NCBI GenBank assembly: GCA_951406725.2
Contig: OX597822.1
Coordinates: forward strand, 93,310,001-93,374,000
Reading direction: 5' to 3'
DNA: 64,000 nt
From: Octopus vulgaris
Taxonomy: Eukaryota
Position 1 is the stretch's first letter. The number at the start of each line of letters is the position of its first letter. The position numbers were made by a program, and so were the translations under genes. Under the pieces are notes generated by a model. It did no database searches. It was not told the DNA's origin and saw only the letters and a program-made list of their open reading frames with translations. Positions 1,166-29,109 of the stretch are shown here, one piece after another.

Positions 1166-1399
1166 ATTTCTTTATTGCCCACCGGGGGGATAAACATAGA
1201 GGGGACAAACAAGGACAGACAAAGGGATTAGGTCGATTACATCGACCCCGTGCGTAACTTGTACTTATTTAATCGACCCCAAAAAGATGAAAGACAAAGT
1301 CGACCTCGGTAGAATTTGAACTCAGAACGTAACGGCAGACGAAATACCGCTAATCACTTCACCCGGCGTGCTAATGATTTTACCAGCTCGCTGCCCCAG
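1166..1399 (-). mobile_element. tRNA-headed SINE, family A (tail type A1), full length
   Basis: Matches many other copies in the window (head GGCxGCGAGCTGGCAGAA..., B-box-like GAGTTCAAATTC, tail ...CAATAAAGAAAT). Flanked by a perfect 15-bp TSD GTAAATTAAATATTG at 1151-1165 and 1400-1414. Confidence 0.9.
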
Positions 1400-11242: not shown

Positions 11243-11516
11243 CACATACACATTTCAAAAAGTTGTACTAAATACTATACAAGATAAATTCTTGATTTAT
11301 CGAAATCACTTTTGTTTCGAAAGGAAGCGAACAAACACCTAGTGGTAATTAAAACCGATCCTGAATGAGAAGAGGAGATATTTTGAAGCAACTAACATGG
11401 TATATATTCTTAGCATGGCTGCAGTCCAATAACTAAAACCAGCGAAAGTACACAGCTAAATAGCTCGCGGCAGGACGATCTACCGATTTGGCCTTCCACG
11501 GCTTCAATAATAATAT

Positions 11517-11739
11517 ATTTCTTTACTACCCACAAGGGGATAAACACAGAGGGGACAAACAAGGACAGACAAAGGGATTAAGTCGATTATATCGACCCCA
11601 GTGCGTAACTAGTACTTAATTTATCGACCCCGAAAGGATGAAAGGCAAAGTCGACCTCGGCGGAATTTGAACTCAGAACGTAACGGCAGACGAAATACGG
11701 CTACGCATTTCACCCGGCGTGCTAACGTTTCTGCCAGCT
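11517..11739 (-). mobile_element. SINE family A (A1)
   Basis: Near-identical to 1166-1399 and to the 25.1-26.5 kb units. Confidence 0.9.
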
Positions 11740-11883
11740 AAGCAGGAAGCTTTTGTTCTTGTCTCGCTTCTCCCATTCAGCACCTTTGTATCAATTCCCC
11801 TACCCCTATCAATCACATGACCCCTCTCTATGGAATCAGTTTCTATTTTACCCATATCGTTCTCCTTGAAAAAAAAAACGTCG

Positions 11884-12854: not shown

Positions 12855-13280
12855 TGATATTCCTTCTACTATTATGATAAAGCTTGAAATTTGGGTGGTG
12901 ATGGTGGTGATAGTAGTTGGGGGGCAAAGATCTAGTAGGTTACATTAATCTCAGTTTCCGACTGGTATTTATTCTATAGATGAATGGATGAAAGGTAAAG
13001 TTAATTGAAATTAGACTCTAACGTTGGAAGAAATGCTGCTAAGCATTTCAGCATTTCGCCCGGCGTGCTAATGGATTCTACCAGCAAGACGTCTTCACAA
13101 TAATCCTTTCTGCTATAGTCACAAAGTCTGGAATTTTGGGGGGAAAGGGATTTAGTCGATTATATCGACCCCAGTACTTATTTTAGCCCTAGTACTTATT
13201 TTATCGACTCCAAAAGGAAGAAAAGGAAACAGTCGATCCCGGCGGAATTTGAGCTCAGAATGTGAAGACGGACGAAATAC
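12855..13280 (-). mobile_element. Two decayed SINE A (tail type A2) copies
   Basis: Retain GCATTTCGCCCGGCGTGCTAA, GTCGATTATATCGACCCCAGT and CGGCGGAATTTGA blocks. Confidence 0.7.
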
Positions 13281-14520: not shown

Positions 14521-18916
<4,396 letters not shown>

Positions 18917-19831: not shown

Positions 19832-20109
19832 TCTTCTTTCTATTCTTGTCTTTCAAATCTATCAAATTCATTCGCAATGCAACGCACTCTTTGTGCCATG
19901 TCGTAGTTGTGAACACGAAAACACGTGGTTGCAGAGTGGTACAAAGCCCTACCTCTACTTACTTCTCACCTAGCTCCCCAAGTTACTCCTATATTCTCTT
20001 TCTATTGCACCTGCTCTCCCTTTTCCCCCTCCACTCTAACCATCCCCTCCTCTCTCTCTGTTTTCTCTCTCTTTTCTTCCCTTTCTTAGTTTTTGTTTCA
20101 AATTTTAAC

Positions 20110-20345
20110 ACAAAGCCACCAGTTTCAAAATGGGGATAAGTCGATTGCATTGACCTCAGTGCTCAGCTGGTACTTATTTTATGGACTCCGATAGGATGAA
20201 AGGCAAAGCGGACTTCGGCGGCATTTAAACTCAGAAATTGAAGTCGGACGAAATACCACAAGGGGCTAAACACAGAGGGGACAAACAAGGACGAAATACC
20301 ACTAAGCGTTTTTCTCGGCGCGGTAACGATTCTGCCAGCTCACGA
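20110..20345 (-). mobile_element. SINE A (A2) containing a 29-bp A1-tail insert
   Basis: GGACGAAATACCAC is duplicated at 20246-20259 and 20289-20302 around AAGGGGCTAAACACAGAGGGGACAAACAA. Confidence 0.8.
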
Positions 20346-20384
20346 CCTTTTTTGTCCAAATAATATTCCTTTGATTTATTCCGC

Positions 20385-20510
20385 CAATGCCTTTCATCCT
20401 CTCGGGGTCGATAAAGCCCCATAAAATAAGTACCAGTTGAACCCCGGGGTTAAAGTAATCGACTTACCCTTCTCTCCGATGTTGCTGGCCTTGTGCCAAA
20501 ATTTGAAACC
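20385..20510 (+). mobile_element. SINE A (A2) 3' fragment
   Basis: GCCTTTCATCC..GGGGTCGATAAA..AAGTACCAGTT..GGCCTTGTGCCAAAATTTGAAACC. Confidence 0.7.
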
Positions 20511-20700
20511 TCCTTTGATTTCTTACTTCTTCAGTCGAACTCTCTCTCTCCCTCTTTCTCTTTCCCTCTCTCACTCTTTTACTCCCCTTCTTTCTTACTC
20601 TCTTTAACGCTGTATCTCTTCTACTCACTTTTTCACCTTCTTTTAAAGGACCTTTCTTTCTCTCTCCCCTCTTTCAATTTCACTCTATCTCTCGTTCATG

Positions 20701-20731
<31 letters not shown>

Positions 20732-20763
20732 CTCTTTCTATTTCACTCTATCTCTCTATCATG

Positions 20764-20794
<31 letters not shown>

Positions 20795-22633
20795 CCCTTT
20801 ATTTTGCCCTGTCTCTCTATCACCCTTCTTGTTTCTCCTTCATCATGTCTCCCTTCAACATTCTATCTTTCTCTCACCCGTTCTCTCTTCCGCACTCCCT
20901 CTTTCTCTCTTCATTTTATACTCCCTTTCTCTCTCTCTCTCTTTATCTTTCTGCTTCTTTTTCACCTTGTCTCTTTTTCATACTCCTTCTTTCTCCCTGT
21001 CTTGCTCTTTCTCTCTTTCATGCTGTTTCTCTTTCACCCTGCCTCTTCCTATCTTCCATCCTGTCACTCTTTCACGCATATATTTCATTATCCCCCCTTC
21101 CTCTCCCTCCCCCTCTCACTCTCACTTTCCCTCTCAGTCTCCCTCTCCCTCTCCCTCACTCTTCTGTTTATTGCAACATCTTCGCCATCTTAATGTCTTT
21201 ATTTAACATAAAAGAACCAGAAAGATTTTTCGTTCTTGGAGATATCATAAATACCAGCATCCAAACTGTCCATTTTTAACCTCCATTTCTAGAACTTATC
21301 TTTTTATCTTTGGCCAAGTCACATGACATTTACAATGATATCCTTCCCATAATTCATTCGCAATCTAACAAACGTTCTTTCTGACAAGCTTAGAATAAAA
21401 GCGTATGTATGTATGTATGTATGTATGTATGTATGTATGTATGTGTATGTGTATATGTGTGTATGTATGTATGTGTGTGTATGTGCATGTATGTATTTTT
21501 ATATGTATATATGTATGCGTATGCATGTATATATGTATGTTTGTATATATGTATGTTTGTATATATGTATGTTTGTATATATGTATGTATGCATGTATGT
21601 ATGCAAGTGTGTATGTAAGTATGCATGTATGTATATGTATTCATGCATATACATGTATGTTTGTATATATGTATGTTTGTATATATGTATGTATGCATGT
21701 ATGTATGCAAGTGTGTATGTAAGTATGCATGCATGCATGTATGTATGTATGTATGTATGTATGTATGTATGCAAATGCATGTGTGTATATACATATATAT
21801 ATATGCACGTGTTTATGTTCGTATATGCATGTACATACATGTGAATGTATGTGTTATGTGTGTGTGTATGTAAGTTTATGTATATGTATGTGCTCGTACT
21901 CATGTGTGCGTGTATGTATATATATATGTGGGGGGGGTGTACGTATGTACTAACGTGTACGTAAGCATTTGAATGTGTGTGTATGTATTTGTGTATGTGT
22001 ACATGTATGTATGTATGTTTGTGTGTATGTACATGCATGTATGTGTACATGTCTGTATGCTTGTGTGTGAGTGTGTATGCATGCGTGTATGTATGCAGGT
22101 GTATGTACGTATATGTGTATACGTATATCTATGTGTCAATGTGTGTGTACGTATGCATGAATGTGCATGTGTATGTATGTTTGTGTGTATGTGCGTGTAT
22201 GTGTGTATATGTGTGCATGAGTGCATGTATGCATAACTGTATGTGCGTATGTGTAAAAGGGGGGGGGAGAGAAGGGGTATCATTTATTTATATTTATATT
22301 TATGTTTTTGTTTTTTTTAATATTGTCCCTTTATTTCAATGATATTGTCTGGTCGAAAGTCCTTCTTTTTGGCTGTTGATTTATCAGCAACACTAGCGAC
22401 CAAATGACGGCGGCGGCAGAGAGGAGACGATGGTGGAGATGGGGGGGGGGGCAGGAGAAATGGGTGGGTAATGACAGAAATATTTGGCGAAGTTTATAGA
22501 ATTGGGGGGATTCGAGAGAAGATAATTCTCTGACTCACAGACGATAGTTCGAAATAAATAAATAAATAAATAAATAGATAAATAAATAAATAAATAAGCT
22601 ATAACGAAGCTATAACGAAGATGGAAATGAGAA

Positions 22634-22682
<49 letters not shown>

Positions 22683-22709
22683 CGACGACGACGACGATGA
22701 TGATGATGG

Positions 22710-22788
<79 letters not shown>

Positions 22789-23110
22789 AGTGGTGGTGGT
22801 GGTGGTGGTGGTGGTGACGACGACGACTAAGAAGAAGAAGAAGAAGAAGACGAAGAAGAAGAAGAAGAAGAAGAAGAAGAAGAAGAAGAAGAAGAAGAAG
22901 AAGAAGAAGAAGAAGAAGAAGAAGAAGAAGAAGAAGAAGAAAATAAGGAAGATGAAGCAGCGATTGAAGTACAGGAGTAGGGGAGGAAGAGGTAGAAAAT
23001 GAAGAAAACGAGCATGAAGAAGAAAATGAAGAGAAAACAGGAAATTAGGAAAGAGAAGAAAATAAAGAAAATGAAGAAGAAAAGGAGGAGAAGGAGGAGG
23101 AGGAGGAGGA
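20510..23110. repeat. Low-complexity block: CT-rich, (TATG)/(TG)-rich, (GAT)n, (GAA)n
   Basis: Seen directly, with short unique interruptions. Confidence 0.9.
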
Positions 23111-23322
23111 GATGTGTTCTCTAGACTACAAAAGAAATTGTGCTGCATGCTAGAATGAATATTTGAGTAATTAGTTTTCTAAAAATGAGTATCACATGAA
23201 ATGAGTATTCATCTTGAGCACTCACCTAAGAGTCATTACCTCTCTGATAAAAATGGCATTTATTCGAATCGATACTGTGACTTGGGATTTACCACTTCCA
23301 TCAATATTGCCATATTTTTTAA

Positions 23323-23718
23323 GGCGGCAAGCTGGCAGAAACGTTAGCACGCCGGGCGAAATGCGTAGCCGTATTTCGTCTGCTGTTACGTTCTGAGTTC
23401 AAATTCCGCCGAGGTCGACTTTGCCTTTCATCCTTTTGGGGTCGATAAATTAAGTACCAGTTACGCACTGGGGTCGATGTAATCGACTTAATCCCGTTTG
23501 TCTGTCCTTGTTTCTCCTCTCTATGTTTAGCCCCTTGTGGGCAATAAAGAAATAGGTATTTCGTCTGTCTTTACGTTCTGAGTTCAAATTCCGCCGAGAT
23601 CGAGTTTGCCTTTCATCCTTTCAGGGTCGATAAATTAAGTACCAGTTGCATACTGGGGTCGATGTAATAGACTGGCCCCCTCCCTCAAAATTTCGGGCCT
23701 TGTACGTAGAGCAGAAAA
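23323..23718 (+). mobile_element. SINE A dimer (full A1 plus 5'-truncated A2)
   Basis: Junction AAAGAAATAG|GTATTTCGTC near 23555; whole unit flanked by AATATTGCCATATTTTT(T)AA at 23303-23322 and 23720-23738. Confidence 0.88.
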
Positions 23719-24680
23719 TAATATTGCCATATTTTTAAGGCTTATGACGCTTAAACTGGGATCAATGTTCGTATGTTAGCGCACACTAAGATATTCTCTG
23801 TGCGATGGACAGAGTGAGGTTAGTCCTCGTTAATCGAGACGTATAGATATATGGAAACTGAGAGGACATAAGCTAAAGCTAGCTTTTGAAGTGGAAGTTT
23901 AAAATGGACAAAGTTAATGCTTTATGAAGTTTGTAGCGAGAGCAAGTATAACTGACAGTTTGTGGTAGACTGAATAAAATTTATCCATACATCTTCATTA
24001 ACTTTTAAATACAATTTGGTAATACATATTCTAAATCGATTTTGAATAGATCACACCATTTTGCATTGTTTTAGTTCAGCTAGTTATGGAAACAGATAAC
24101 AGATCAACAGGGAATGTTACTTGCGACTGAACAGGTGAAATATTCTCTATCATCTGCTTGTTAAGCAGATGATAAAAAATATTTCACCATTACTCCAGCC
24201 TACAAGTTCCTGTCGGGGACTTGGAGACATTTTTATATTGGTTTTGTTTGAGCTCATGCAAACAACGTAAAGAATTCGAACGATATCAGAGATATTATGG
24301 AAAAAGTTAAACAATTGGAACGTGATAGTTCCACGAAAAATCAGAACCGAAGAACGTTAGGAAGTTCTTGTCAGAACAAAAGAATATCGAAGTCAAACAT
24401 AGTATATTTGGAGCATAGTAATTGTAGACAAGATTTTAACTGAAACCCAGGAAAACCAAACGGTTAATATGTAAAATCAAATCAAATCAAATATCTAAAA
24501 TAACATAATATGATATAATAAATTGTGTGTGTGGTCGAACAAACTAATCAGAGGTACAAGAGTTCAATATATGATCGCCCTGGCTGAAATACATTTATGT
24601 ACTTGTCATAGATTCGTTCTATGGGTCAAATATTTATCAATACTTGGCATACTCAGTACTGTCTTAAGGTATATGATCGC

Positions 24681-24990
24681 TGGGCAGTCCCCCGGGGACC
24701 TCACAGCTTTGGACGGTCGTTAGGGAACCTCACGCCTATGGGTAGTTGCCAGGAGGTTTCACGCCAGTGGCCAATTGCCAGGATGCCTCACGTCTCTGAG
24801 CAGTAACCGGAGGCCTCACGGCTCAGGGAAGTTGTCAAGTGGCCTCACAACTCTGAGTTGTCGCCAGTGGGGCTTAACTGTTCTGGACAATAACCTGGCA
24901 CCCCTACAGGTAGTATTTCGGACAATCGGCGTGAGGCCTCATGGCTTTGGATAGTTGATGGGTGGAGAATGGGAGCTCACGACTTTGGTG
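24681..24990. repeat. Degenerate ~29-bp GC-rich minisatellite
   Basis: CCTCAC..CTxTGG..AGTTGCCAG..GG recurs about every 28-31 bp. Confidence 0.75.
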
Positions 24991-25145
24991 GGCTATACGT
25001 AACAGTTTATCAGTTCAGTTGAAATACAATATTTTTAGTGTTGAGGGAGGCAGCTGAAGGGGTTCGGACACAATAAAGTGAAACATTATGGAAGCAGAAA
25101 CGGTGAGGCTTAAAGCTCATGTCGAAAATGTATTTGCTCACATAC

Positions 25146-26549
25146 ACCTATTTCTTTACTGCCCACAAGGGGCTAAACACAGAGGGGACAAACAAGGGCA
25201 GACATAGGTATTAAGTCGATTACATCGACCCCAGTGCGTAACTGGTACTTAATTTATCGACCCCGAAAGGATGAAAGGCAAAGTCGACCTCGGCGGAATT
25301 TGAACTCAGAACGTAACGGCAGACGAAATACCTATTTCTATTTCTATTTCTTTATTACCCACAAGGGGCTAAACACAGAGCGGACAAACAAGGACAGACA
25401 TAGGTATTAAGTCGATTACATCGACCCCAGTGCGTAACTGGTACTTAATTTATCGACCCCGAAAGGATGAAAGGCAAAGTCGACCTCGGCGGAATTTGAA
25501 CTCAGAACGTAACGGCAGACGAAATACCTATTTCTATTTCTATTTCTTTATTACCCACAAGGGGCTAAACACAGAGCGGACAAACAAGGACAGACATAGG
25601 TATTAAGTCGATTACATCGACCCCAGTGCGTAACTGGTACTTATTTAATCGACCCCGAAAGGATGAAAGGCAAAGTCGACCTCGGCGGAATTTGAACTCA
25701 GAACGTAACGGCAGACGAAATACCTATTTCTATTTCTATTTCTTTATTACCCACAAGGGGCTAAACACAGAGCGGACAAACAAGGACAGACATAGGTATT
25801 AAGTCGATTACATCGACCCCAGTGCGTAACTGGTACTTAATTTATCGACCCCGAAAGGATGAAAGGCAAAGTCGACCTCGGCGGAATTTGAACTCAGAAC
25901 GTAACGGCAGACGAAATACCTATTTCTATTTCTATTTCTTTATTACCCACAAGGGGCTAAACACAGAGCGGACAAACAAGGACAGACATAGGTATTAAGT
26001 CGATTAAATCAACTCCAGTGCGTAACTGGTACTTATTTAATCGACCCCGAAAGGATGAAAGGCAAAGTCGACCTCGGCGGAATTTGAACTCAGAACGTAA
26101 CGGCAGACGAAATACCTATTTCTATTTCTATTTCTTTATTACCCACAAGGGGCTAAACACAGAGCGGACAAACAAGGACAGACATAGGTATTAAGTCGAT
26201 TACATCGACCCCAGTGCGTAACTGGTACTTAATTTATCGACCCCGAAAGGATGAAAGGCAAAGTCGACCTCGGCGGAATTTGAACTCAGAACGTAACGGC
26301 AGACGAAATACCTATTTCTATTTCTATTTCTTTATTACCCACAAGGGGCTAAACACAGAGCGGACAAACAAGGACAGACATAGGTATTAAGTCGATTACA
26401 TCGACCCCAGTGCGTAACTGGTACTTAATTTATCGACCCCGAAAGGATGAAAGGCAAAGTCGACCTCGGCGGAATTTGAACTCAGAACGTAACGGCAGAC
26501 GAAATACCGCTAAGCATTTCGCCCGGCGTGCTAACGTTTCTGCCAGCTC
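25146..26549 (-). repeat. Tandem array of 7 SINE A1 units, exact 196-bp period
   Basis: GACGAAATAC starts at 25322, 25518, 25714, 25910, 26106, 26302 and 26498; only the unit at about 26310-26549 keeps the SINE head. Confidence 0.97.
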
Positions 26550-28104: not shown

Positions 28105-29040
28105 GGAAGGTAGCGGACTAGCAGAATCGTTAGTACGCCGGACAAAATGTTTAGCGCCATTTCGTCCGTCTTAACGTCCTTAGTCGAGGTCGCCATTTCG
28201 TCCGTCTTAACGTCCTTAGTCGAGGTCGACTTTGTCTTTCATCCCATTAGGGGTCGATAAAATAAGTACGAATTAAGCACTGGGGTCGATGTAATCGATC
28301 AACCCCCAAAATAAAGGCCTAGTGCCAAAATTTGAAACCAGTATAATTAGCATTGGCAATATTATTACTAGCTCTAGGGCGGCGAGTTGGCAGAAACGTT
28401 AGCACGCTGAGCGACATGCTTAACGGTATTTCGTCTGCCGTTACGTTCTGAGTTCAAATTCCGCCGAGGTCGACTTTGCCTTTCATCCTTTCGGGGGTCG
28501 ATTAAATTAGTACCAGTTACGCACTGGGGTCGATATAATTGACTTAATCCGTTTGTCTGTCCTTGTTTGTCCTCTCTCTGTGGTTAGCCCCTTGTGGGTA
28601 GTAAAGAAATAAGAATTGCTAGCACGGTCAGGCGAAATGCTTAGCGGTATTTCGTCTGTCCTTATGTTCTGAGTTCAAATTCCGCCGAGGTCAACTTTGC
28701 CTTTCATCCTTTCGGGGTCGATAAATTAAGTACCAGTTGCGTATTGGGGTCGATCTAATCGGCTGGTCCTCAAAAAATTCGGGCCTTGTACTTAGCGCAG
28801 AAAAGAATATCATGACTAGCTCTAGGGCGGTGAGCTGGCAGAATTGTTGGCACGGTCAGGTGAAATGCTTGGCGGCATTTCGTCCGTGTTAATGTCTTGG
28901 GAAAATTCCACCGAGGTCAGCTTTACATTTCATCCTTACGGGATCAATAAGATATGTACAGGGTCGATAAAATATGGGGCCGATGCAATCGAGGTATCCA
29001 CTTCCTCGAAACTGCTGGCCTTGTGCTAAAATTTTAAATC
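28105..29040 (+). mobile_element. Head-to-tail cluster of four SINE A copies
   Basis: Copies at about 28105-28340, 28378-28611, 28612-28808 and 28825-29040; flank AATATyATkACTAGCTCTAGGGCGG repeated at about 28358 and 28806. Confidence 0.85.
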
Positions 29041-29109
29041 AATATGACTAGCACAAGATTTCGGACTTGTGCATGTACACACACATAAATATACATAGAT
29101 ATAACCCCA

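Follow-up and report, generated by a model that had tools for sequence, protein, structure and literature searches.

Repeated joining of an octopus SINE tail to one site in the head of its own family: a possible self-targeting short interspersed element

Several families of Tx1-type long interspersed elements (LINEs) are described as targeting microsatellites and other transposons (available text of PMC4494074), and the closest precedent for the behavior considered here comes from the same source, in which the crocodilian short interspersed element (SINE) SINEU-3 and its partner Tx1-Mar likewise use a preferred site in an abundant repeat, Mariner-N4_AMi. The available text further reports that SINEU-3 produces a duplication of approximately 16 base pairs (bp), that truncated copies are found at the same site, that tandem insertions occur, and that the preference is weaker in some families (13-23%). 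The present analysis concerns a stretch of 64,000 nucleotides (nt) of Octopus vulgaris DNA (contig OX597822.1, positions 93,310,001 to 93,374,000; this whole 64-kb stretch is called 'the window', and coordinates refer to it), in which the tail of a SINE subfamily, termed A1, is repeatedly joined to one site in the head of its own family.

Two further kinds of described structure bear on this locus. The SINE-derived satellites of squamates consist, like the array described below, of tandem partial-SINE units, one terminal unit being longer than the rest, with homogenisation inside each locus; the available text puts their founding step down to unequal recombination or chance re-insertion, and describes no defined target site with duplication (PMC10702118). 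Chimeric retrocopies, including those of U6 and L1, join a full-length 5' RNA copy to a 5'-truncated partner within a single duplication pair, as do both dimers in the window (available texts of PMC6789731, PMC4476161 and PMC2104539).

The octopus SINE family is approximately 240 bp long, dispersed, multicopy and non-coding, with more than 15 separate copies or fragments within the window, and bears two tail types on a common head and body: A1, which terminates in AAAGAAATA, and A2. Its 3' end is fixed and carries short repeats (one to three of GAAATA), and its target duplications vary (15 bp at 1166-1399, 14 bp at 20246-20302). The junction in question consists of GAAATA followed by GGTATTTCGTC, approximately 50 nt from the SINE 5' end, in the head. 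Its 17-letter form, GAAATAGGTATTTCGTC, occurs seven times in the window versus never in 100 shuffles; six of these occurrences are the junctions of a tandem array (minus strand; 25322-25338 through 26302-26318) and the seventh, at 23549-23565, belongs to a dimer. An earlier examination made from the letters alone (the sequence-only reading) had held that the array and the dimer join the A1 tail at one site, and this was borne out. When the six array junctions are counted as one, the window contains eight separate A1 3'-end events, three of them at the site (the array, 23555 and 20256), one at SINE position ~17 (28611) and four in non-SINE DNA (1166, 11516, 25149 and 62071). In a window that was picked for this very feature, three in eight at the site has a chance of ~1e-8 when all positions are considered and, post hoc, of ~2e-3 when the comparison is confined to the four events inside SINEs. 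A SINE is termed target-specific when more than 20% of its insertions are flanked by one target (available text of PMC4494074); the count for A1 is 3/8 within this one window, itself chosen for the feature.

The site coincides with a structural element of the SINE head:

26496-26525, minus strand: hairpin in the tRNA-like head, by RNA fold (5' arm 26513-26525, loop 26509-26512, 3' arm 26496-26508), the junction being the first base of the 3' arm

The hairpin has a 13-bp stem and a UAGC loop, and its fold is significant as RNA in SINE sense (z -3.17); it is not significant as antisense RNA (z -0.67) or as DNA (z -0.82 and -0.86), nor is the RNA fold of the whole unit (z -1.24). The site had been assigned beforehand to the 3' arm of a hairpin, and that arm does start exactly at the junction, on a stem longer than had been stated. 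The junction itself forms an inverted repeat, GAAATA-GG-TATTTC, and TATTTC is present once in the SINE.

The best-shown insertion of A1 into existing genomic DNA is found at 20246-20302:

20100-20350, minus strand: old SINE host, its body 77-83% identical to 11 other copies in the window
20289-20302, minus strand: upstream copy of the 14-bp duplication, at the site
20260-20288, minus strand: A1 tail insert of 29 bp (37 bp with the 4-bp common ends), 36/37 identical to young copies
20246-20259, minus strand: downstream copy of the 14-bp duplication, identical to the upstream copy

At this locus GTGGTATTTCGTCC is present twice in identical form (20289-20302 and 20246-20259), flanking a piece of A1 tail that matches each of the four copies tested at 36 of 37 positions, shares 4 bp at each end with the duplication, and ends 14 nt before the true tail end, so that it lacks GAAATA. 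The sequence-only reading had described a 29-bp piece of A1 tail lying in an old A2 copy between duplications; this was confirmed, the match being in reality 37 bp long. Since the host is approximately 20% diverged, the insert retains 36 of 37 positions and the 14-bp repeats are identical, the tail entered long after the host itself. The host body, at 90% likeness, drew little depth from other copies in the alignment of public runs, which argues that the host is not a young subfamily. Because the duplication starts at the site, the downstream half of the target is kept. A1 thereby displays two traits of the SINEU type, namely 5'-truncated copies at the same site (the 20260-20288 insert, and a truncated-tail unit in public run X23) and target duplication (14 bp at 20246-20302, and 13-16 bp in two records of run X5).

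Recurrence of the junction was analysed in public sequencing runs, of which seven of the 24 listed were compared overall. Three dispersed A1 monomers lying away from the site served as reference or control:

11516-11739, minus strand: dispersed A1 monomer away from the site, the reference for read alignment
1166-1399, minus strand: dispersed A1 monomer with a perfect 15-bp duplication, away from the site (control)
62071-62292, minus strand: dispersed A1 monomer with a GAAACA tail, away from the site (control)

Runs X22, X23, X11 and X15 were aligned to the first of these (11380-11860), and the results concern the best 15 of 240 joints, 12 of 291 between-letter rows and 20 of 694 loose ends. 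Counts on this monomer are lower bounds for X11 (at least 258,157 contigs of which aligned to it) and for X15, which is only guessed to be RNA; contig counts reflect diversity, not insertions, and the 14 reads of X22 and 214 of X23 that aligned, of 12.9 million each, are not a fair genome sample. The joint of the tail end (11516) to the site (11698) was found in all four runs (one read in X22, two reads in X23, at least two contigs in X11 and at least 27 contigs in X15). Within X15, all three tail joints among the best 15 of 240 reach 11697/11698; six of seven between-letter rows among the best 12 of 291 lie at the same position, and in the seventh the body has diverged but the register is unchanged. 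In at least 591 X15 contigs the site is immediately preceded by the A1 tail; the consensus of at least 148 tail-end contigs follows the target for 23 letters (agreement 0.55).

Point-mutated versions of the junction hold the same register in the public runs, and several tail variants are found at the same joint. In X23, a ~79-bp tandem consists of 13 bp of target and a 5'-truncated A1 tail (39 and 25 reads), accompanied by two further tandems of the tail, joined at other points (12 and 5 reads). In two X5 records (depths 61 and 517) a complete SINE head comes straight after 13-16 bp of target, the arrangement that a full-length insertion with duplication would be expected to leave at its 5' side. 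The sequence-only reading had named two patterns that would speak against targeting, a spread of junctions along the SINE and their descent from one master dimer; instead, the distribution is uneven and recurs at one site both in the window and in the runs, and the junctions belong to differing haplotypes. The leading X11 joints, at 11678-11683, were rejected as candidates, since they reflect breaks in the alignment at differences between A2-type copies and the A1 reference. The loose ends of X23 also include short tandem repeats of the A1 tail alone, one of them ~79 bp long with a palindromic junction, GAAATA-GC-TATTTC. Exact scans for the A1 tail returned no loci in metagenome contigs and none in viral contigs.

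The explanation that we favor, and consider probable, is that the A1 tail was joined repeatedly to the head of its own family through a nick made by a LINE endonuclease, and that the array arose from one such insertion followed by local duplication. Targeting at the level of DNA is correspondingly taken as the likely origin of the junction and an origin at the level of RNA as an improbable one, and both may operate. The recurrence of the junction at one register, with differing tails and hosts, is observed directly, and insertion into an existing DNA copy with a 13-16 bp duplication starting at the site is observed at one locus and indicated by two contigs. The bottom strand would be nicked just 5' of GGTATTTC, and reverse transcription would proceed from the A1 tail. 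The freed top-strand end, being homologous to the new cDNA, could then anneal to it in register and yield head-less tandem units; off-register joins would yield either a short insert such as 20260-20288 or a second full head. Unequal exchange or slippage would have multiplied one unit into the array, and some dimers may have been copied anew as a single RNA, or may have had their host head replaced by overwriting, either of which would result in the single duplication pair that surrounds the dimer at 23321-23719.

By analogy, A1 may work as SINEU-3 does with Tx1-Mar, a likeness that stops short of established membership in that kind, and its carrier would probably be a LINE with a sequence-preferring, Tx1-type endonuclease. 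The target of SINEU-3 is an unrelated DNA transposon, whereas that of A1 is the SINE's own head, so that the A1 passenger supplies its own target and homology can give head-less units; in addition, the LINE partner of SINEU-3 has been demonstrated (available text of PMC4494074), whereas that of A1 is presumed. The other Tx1-type elements in the same text (Tx1L in Tx1D, Keno in U2 genes, Kibi and Koshi in microsatellites) resemble the present case in their sequence-preferring insertion into multicopy targets; a SINE head is not among the targets named there, and on the A1 side the comparison covers SINE copies. Thirteen recently active L1-Tx1 families are reported for O. vulgaris, the available text making no mention of their targets (PMC13282606). 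Within the window, three T-rich elements bear a tail approximately 80% like that of A1 over 42-47 bp, and all three lie inside (TATC)n:

43390-43620, minus strand: T-rich element with A1-like tail in (TATC)n
45231-45470, plus strand: T-rich element with A1-like tail in (TATC)n
46120-46270, plus strand: T-rich element with A1-like tail in (TATC)n

These likely represent a microsatellite-targeting sister family, and their placement suggests that the family of A1-like tails is tied to enzymes that choose their targets. An elaboration in which the SINE would serve as a landing site for its own LINE, in a self-feeding loop with the tail GAAAUA pairing with TATTTC and assisting site choice, seems unlikely. 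The SINE has a single TATTTC, which lies two bases from the junction and has the tail repeat GAAAUA as its reverse complement; the pairing is weak (6 bp, -4.2 kcal/mol, equalled in 134 of 2000 shuffles), and the 20260-20288 insert, which has no repeat at its junction, counts against RNA-assisted targeting.

The array is the most conspicuous product of this site:

25148-26549, minus strand: array of one SINE head and seven head-less A1 units, with a 196-bp period
25148-25331, minus strand: last array unit, with 4 differences from unit 1, all in its final 50 bases, and a single GAAATA, followed by non-SINE DNA

Its tandem repeat spans 25148-26508 (period 196, 6.9 copies, 98% matches), with the single head extending to 26549, and its six junctions of GAAATA with the site fall at 26312/26311, 26116/26115, 25920/25919, 25724/25723, 25528/25527 and 25332/25331. 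The sequence-only reading had supposed, in addition to targeting, that the array grew unit by unit through six separate insertions, which we regard as rather unlikely. Units 1, 2, 4 and 6 are identical, and units 1-6 differ at 0-5 of 183 bases versus 7-22 among dispersed copies, a likeness that is known from the assembly alone and may be exaggerated by assembly polishing. Two variants are common to all seven units and absent from the five dispersed copies compared, the repeat number is exactly three in each of the six tails, and a two-base variant recurs in units 3 and 5, as expected after a two-unit duplication. The close likeness, the private variants and the equal tail length fit local duplication better than unit-by-unit growth, and the array was likely founded by one insertion and then multiplied as DNA, to judge from its sequence. 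In favor of six insertions, the target's downstream half is intact at each junction, later homogenisation or polishing could hide separate origins, and the last unit differs from the others in its tail only (the confinement of its four differences to the final 50 bases has a chance of 0.006), which would result either from a new tail joined to the body of a host or from an edge not reached by homogenisation; sequential tandem insertion is also reported for SINEU-3 (available text of PMC4494074). The array has the properties of a SINE-derived satellite, with tandem partial-SINE units, an extended terminal unit and homogenisation within the locus. A duplication around the whole array, in which the flanks match at ~14/19 positions with a gap, is at best a doubtful candidate, being too loose for so young an element. 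A GC-rich single-copy stretch lies beside the array (24650-25060), with a degenerate 29-bp repeat at 24728-24792 and no match elsewhere in the window.

Several observations weigh against targeting of DNA by a LINE enzyme. Five of the eight A1 tail ends lie away from the site, whose use is a preference and not that of an exclusive target; of the earlier proposal that A1 prefers this site, repeated preferential joining is supported, in the window and in public runs, and exclusivity is not. The consensus that follows the tail in X2, X5 and X8 (641, 1105 and 666 contigs) is target-like for 4-7 letters and then AT-rich, and that in X11 (331 contigs) is AGAAAC, resembling the position-17 junction or the tail repeat, not the target; accordingly, the strong preference for the site is displayed by a minority of distinct loci, and it appears to be more marked in certain lineages. 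In the insert at 20260-20288 the end of the tail is missing, and the nick, which falls within 2 bp of the array register, may have been made 2 bp upstream. An empty allele of that locus, proposed beforehand as a check, was sought by alignment of X2, X5, X8 and X11 to 20190-20387 (the best 15 of 22, 12 of 37 and 24 of 324 rows), and no empty joint, that is, no skip of 43 bp, was found in any of the four. The locus is filled in X5, not covered in X2, and undecidable in X11, where contigs break at the site; X11 has both flanks (records 1 and 2), neither entering the insert, and since the filled X5 also has no listed bridging pieces, their absence in X11 proves nothing. The window also contains no partner LINE: Pfam matched five of 88 frames (86 of 95 high-complexity frames, nine SINE frames being dropped, plus two added), none with a Tx1 endonuclease or reverse transcriptase. 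Remnants of LINE 3'-coding sequence do lie at 34358-35101 and 35802-36374 (both minus strand), among (ATT)n/(CAT)n, with a weak zf-RVT match below cut-off, and these we take to be R4/Dong-like.

A final difficulty is posed by the structure of the dimers, shown here with a related copy:

23321-23555, plus strand: full-length A1 copy with A1-type head, 5' half of the first dimer
23556-23719, plus strand: A2-tailed copy without a head, beginning at the site and forming the 3' half of the first dimer
23303-23325, plus strand: left direct repeat bracketing the whole 23321-23719 dimer, differing from its partner by one T
23720-23741, plus strand: right direct repeat bracketing the whole 23321-23719 dimer
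28358-28830, plus strand: the other A1-A2 dimer, its joint at 28611/28612 leading into SINE position ~17
13098-13280, minus strand: A2-type copy starting precisely at GTATTTCGTC; neither an A1 tail nor a head was found upstream

The first dimer had been described as independent, with the same junction and A2 sequence downstream, and the A1 tail is indeed joined at 23555/23556 to an A2-tailed body. The second, which the sequence-only reading missed together with the single duplication pairs around both dimers and the four A1 ends in non-SINE DNA, is bracketed by one 25-bp direct repeat (28358-28382 and 28806-28830; 23/25 match). Its position-17 junction displays short direct homology (AG/AGAAA) and is matched by one X11 record. 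That junction may dominate in the organism of X11.

Each dimer has an A1-type head and is enclosed as a whole by a single duplication pair, a structure that follows directly from a template switch. Together with the copy ending at 13280, they fit template switching, a dimer re-copied from an inner promoter, or a host head overwritten by cDNA. An origin of the junction in RNA-level chimeras would have reverse transcription stop, or the SINE RNA be cut, at the hairpin loop and continue on, or be ligated to, the 3' end of A1 RNA, with insertion anywhere in one step and with arrays formed by repeated jumps or from a circle; we consider this decidedly unlikely. It is favored, besides the dimers, by the position of the junction, which borders the loop of a hairpin whose fold is significant in sense RNA only, by the start of the 13280 copy exactly at the site with no tail upstream, and by the prominence of the junction in X15, a run guessed to be RNA. 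It leaves unexplained the young insert with identical duplications in a 20%-diverged host, the X5 records of target followed by a second full head, and the X23 unit of target plus truncated tail; furthermore, a stalled enzyme would be expected to halt where the stem begins rather than at the loop. Known chimeric retrocopies have junctions spread along the 3' partner and are not known to carry a target duplication at the junction. Formation of U6/L1 chimeras by RNA ligation is nevertheless known (available text of PMC6789731), which lends this origin some plausibility.

Still less probable, to the point of being remote, is a fragile DNA site, at which the head hairpin would break or stall replication and microhomology repair would copy in A1 tail DNA, with no retrotransposon enzyme picking the site. 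The 4-bp common ends on both sides of the 20260-20288 insert speak for it, as do hairpin-spanning deletions in X11 and X15 (skips of 31 and 39) and the following duplication, which lacks any tail:

28155-28228, plus strand: tandem duplication of 36 bp within an old SINE copy; its start lies at most 2 bp from the site, and no A1 tail is involved

The sequence-only reading had this duplication start at the site; it exists, and begins within 2 bp (its edges being ambiguous by a common CG), and is weak as evidence of targeting. It is given little weight because it has no tail, is longer than 13-16 bp, and has counterparts among small duplications or insertions at other SINE positions (13169-13203; an 8-bp repeat near 13050). 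Against fragility, the hairpin is not significant as DNA, and the usual junction involves the exact 3' end of the element, 0-1 bp in common and a constant orientation; an exact 3' end and constant orientation are the mark of target-primed reverse transcription.

That one master dimer or one spreading satellite gave rise to all of the junctions is largely refuted and hardly credible, since, for all that the 23555 dimer may have moved as one RNA and that a junction common to many contigs is expected of a spreading master, the same register is held by three tail variants around GGGYARTAAAG (window and runs), by differing downstream subfamilies (A1, young A2 and the old host) and by differing 5' structures (head-less, truncated and double-headed).

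The window as a whole is AT-rich and dense in microsatellites, and no tRNA genes or host gene were detected in it. Box A- and B-like motifs, judged by eye against the box motifs of polymerase III promoters, are present in the SINE head; ARAGORN found no tRNA, and Rfam gave no ribozyme or tRNA match in the head. A1 and A2 presumably resemble the octopus OR1 and OR2, two tRNA-headed families with a common head and body and differing tails. OR1 and OR2 have been named CORE-SINEs, and self-targeting is not mentioned in the available text of either source (PMC4824008, PMC4758252). SINE copies tend to be clustered head to tail, several lying just upstream of the head of an older copy (28105-29045, 35020-35420 and 12940-13280). 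X11 lacks the A1 copy at 11516-11739; in one of its contigs the two flanks meet across 14 additional letters, which suggests that the insertion of the copy deleted a little of the target. Fragments of a Pif1 helicase at 15645-16874 (minus strand; PF05970, PF21530) likely derive from a broken Helitron, and a Mariner/Tc1 transposase remnant lies at 32859-33876 (minus strand; HTH_48 match, with DDE_3 below cut-off).

A literature search, which fell mostly short of subscription papers and of Repbase entries, returned no report of a SINE targeting its own head. If the favored explanation is true, a SINE that is the preferred target of its own carrier would make safe landing sites, the number of targets growing with the number of elements, and would offer both a simple path to sequence specificity for a LINE endonuclease and a defined starting event in the origin of SINE-derived satellites. 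The joining of retrotransposon 5' ends where target and cDNA are homologous could also be tested on thousands of natural junctions. For the annotation of octopus repeats, dimers and arrays of the A1 family should not be counted as independent insertions or as new SINE families.

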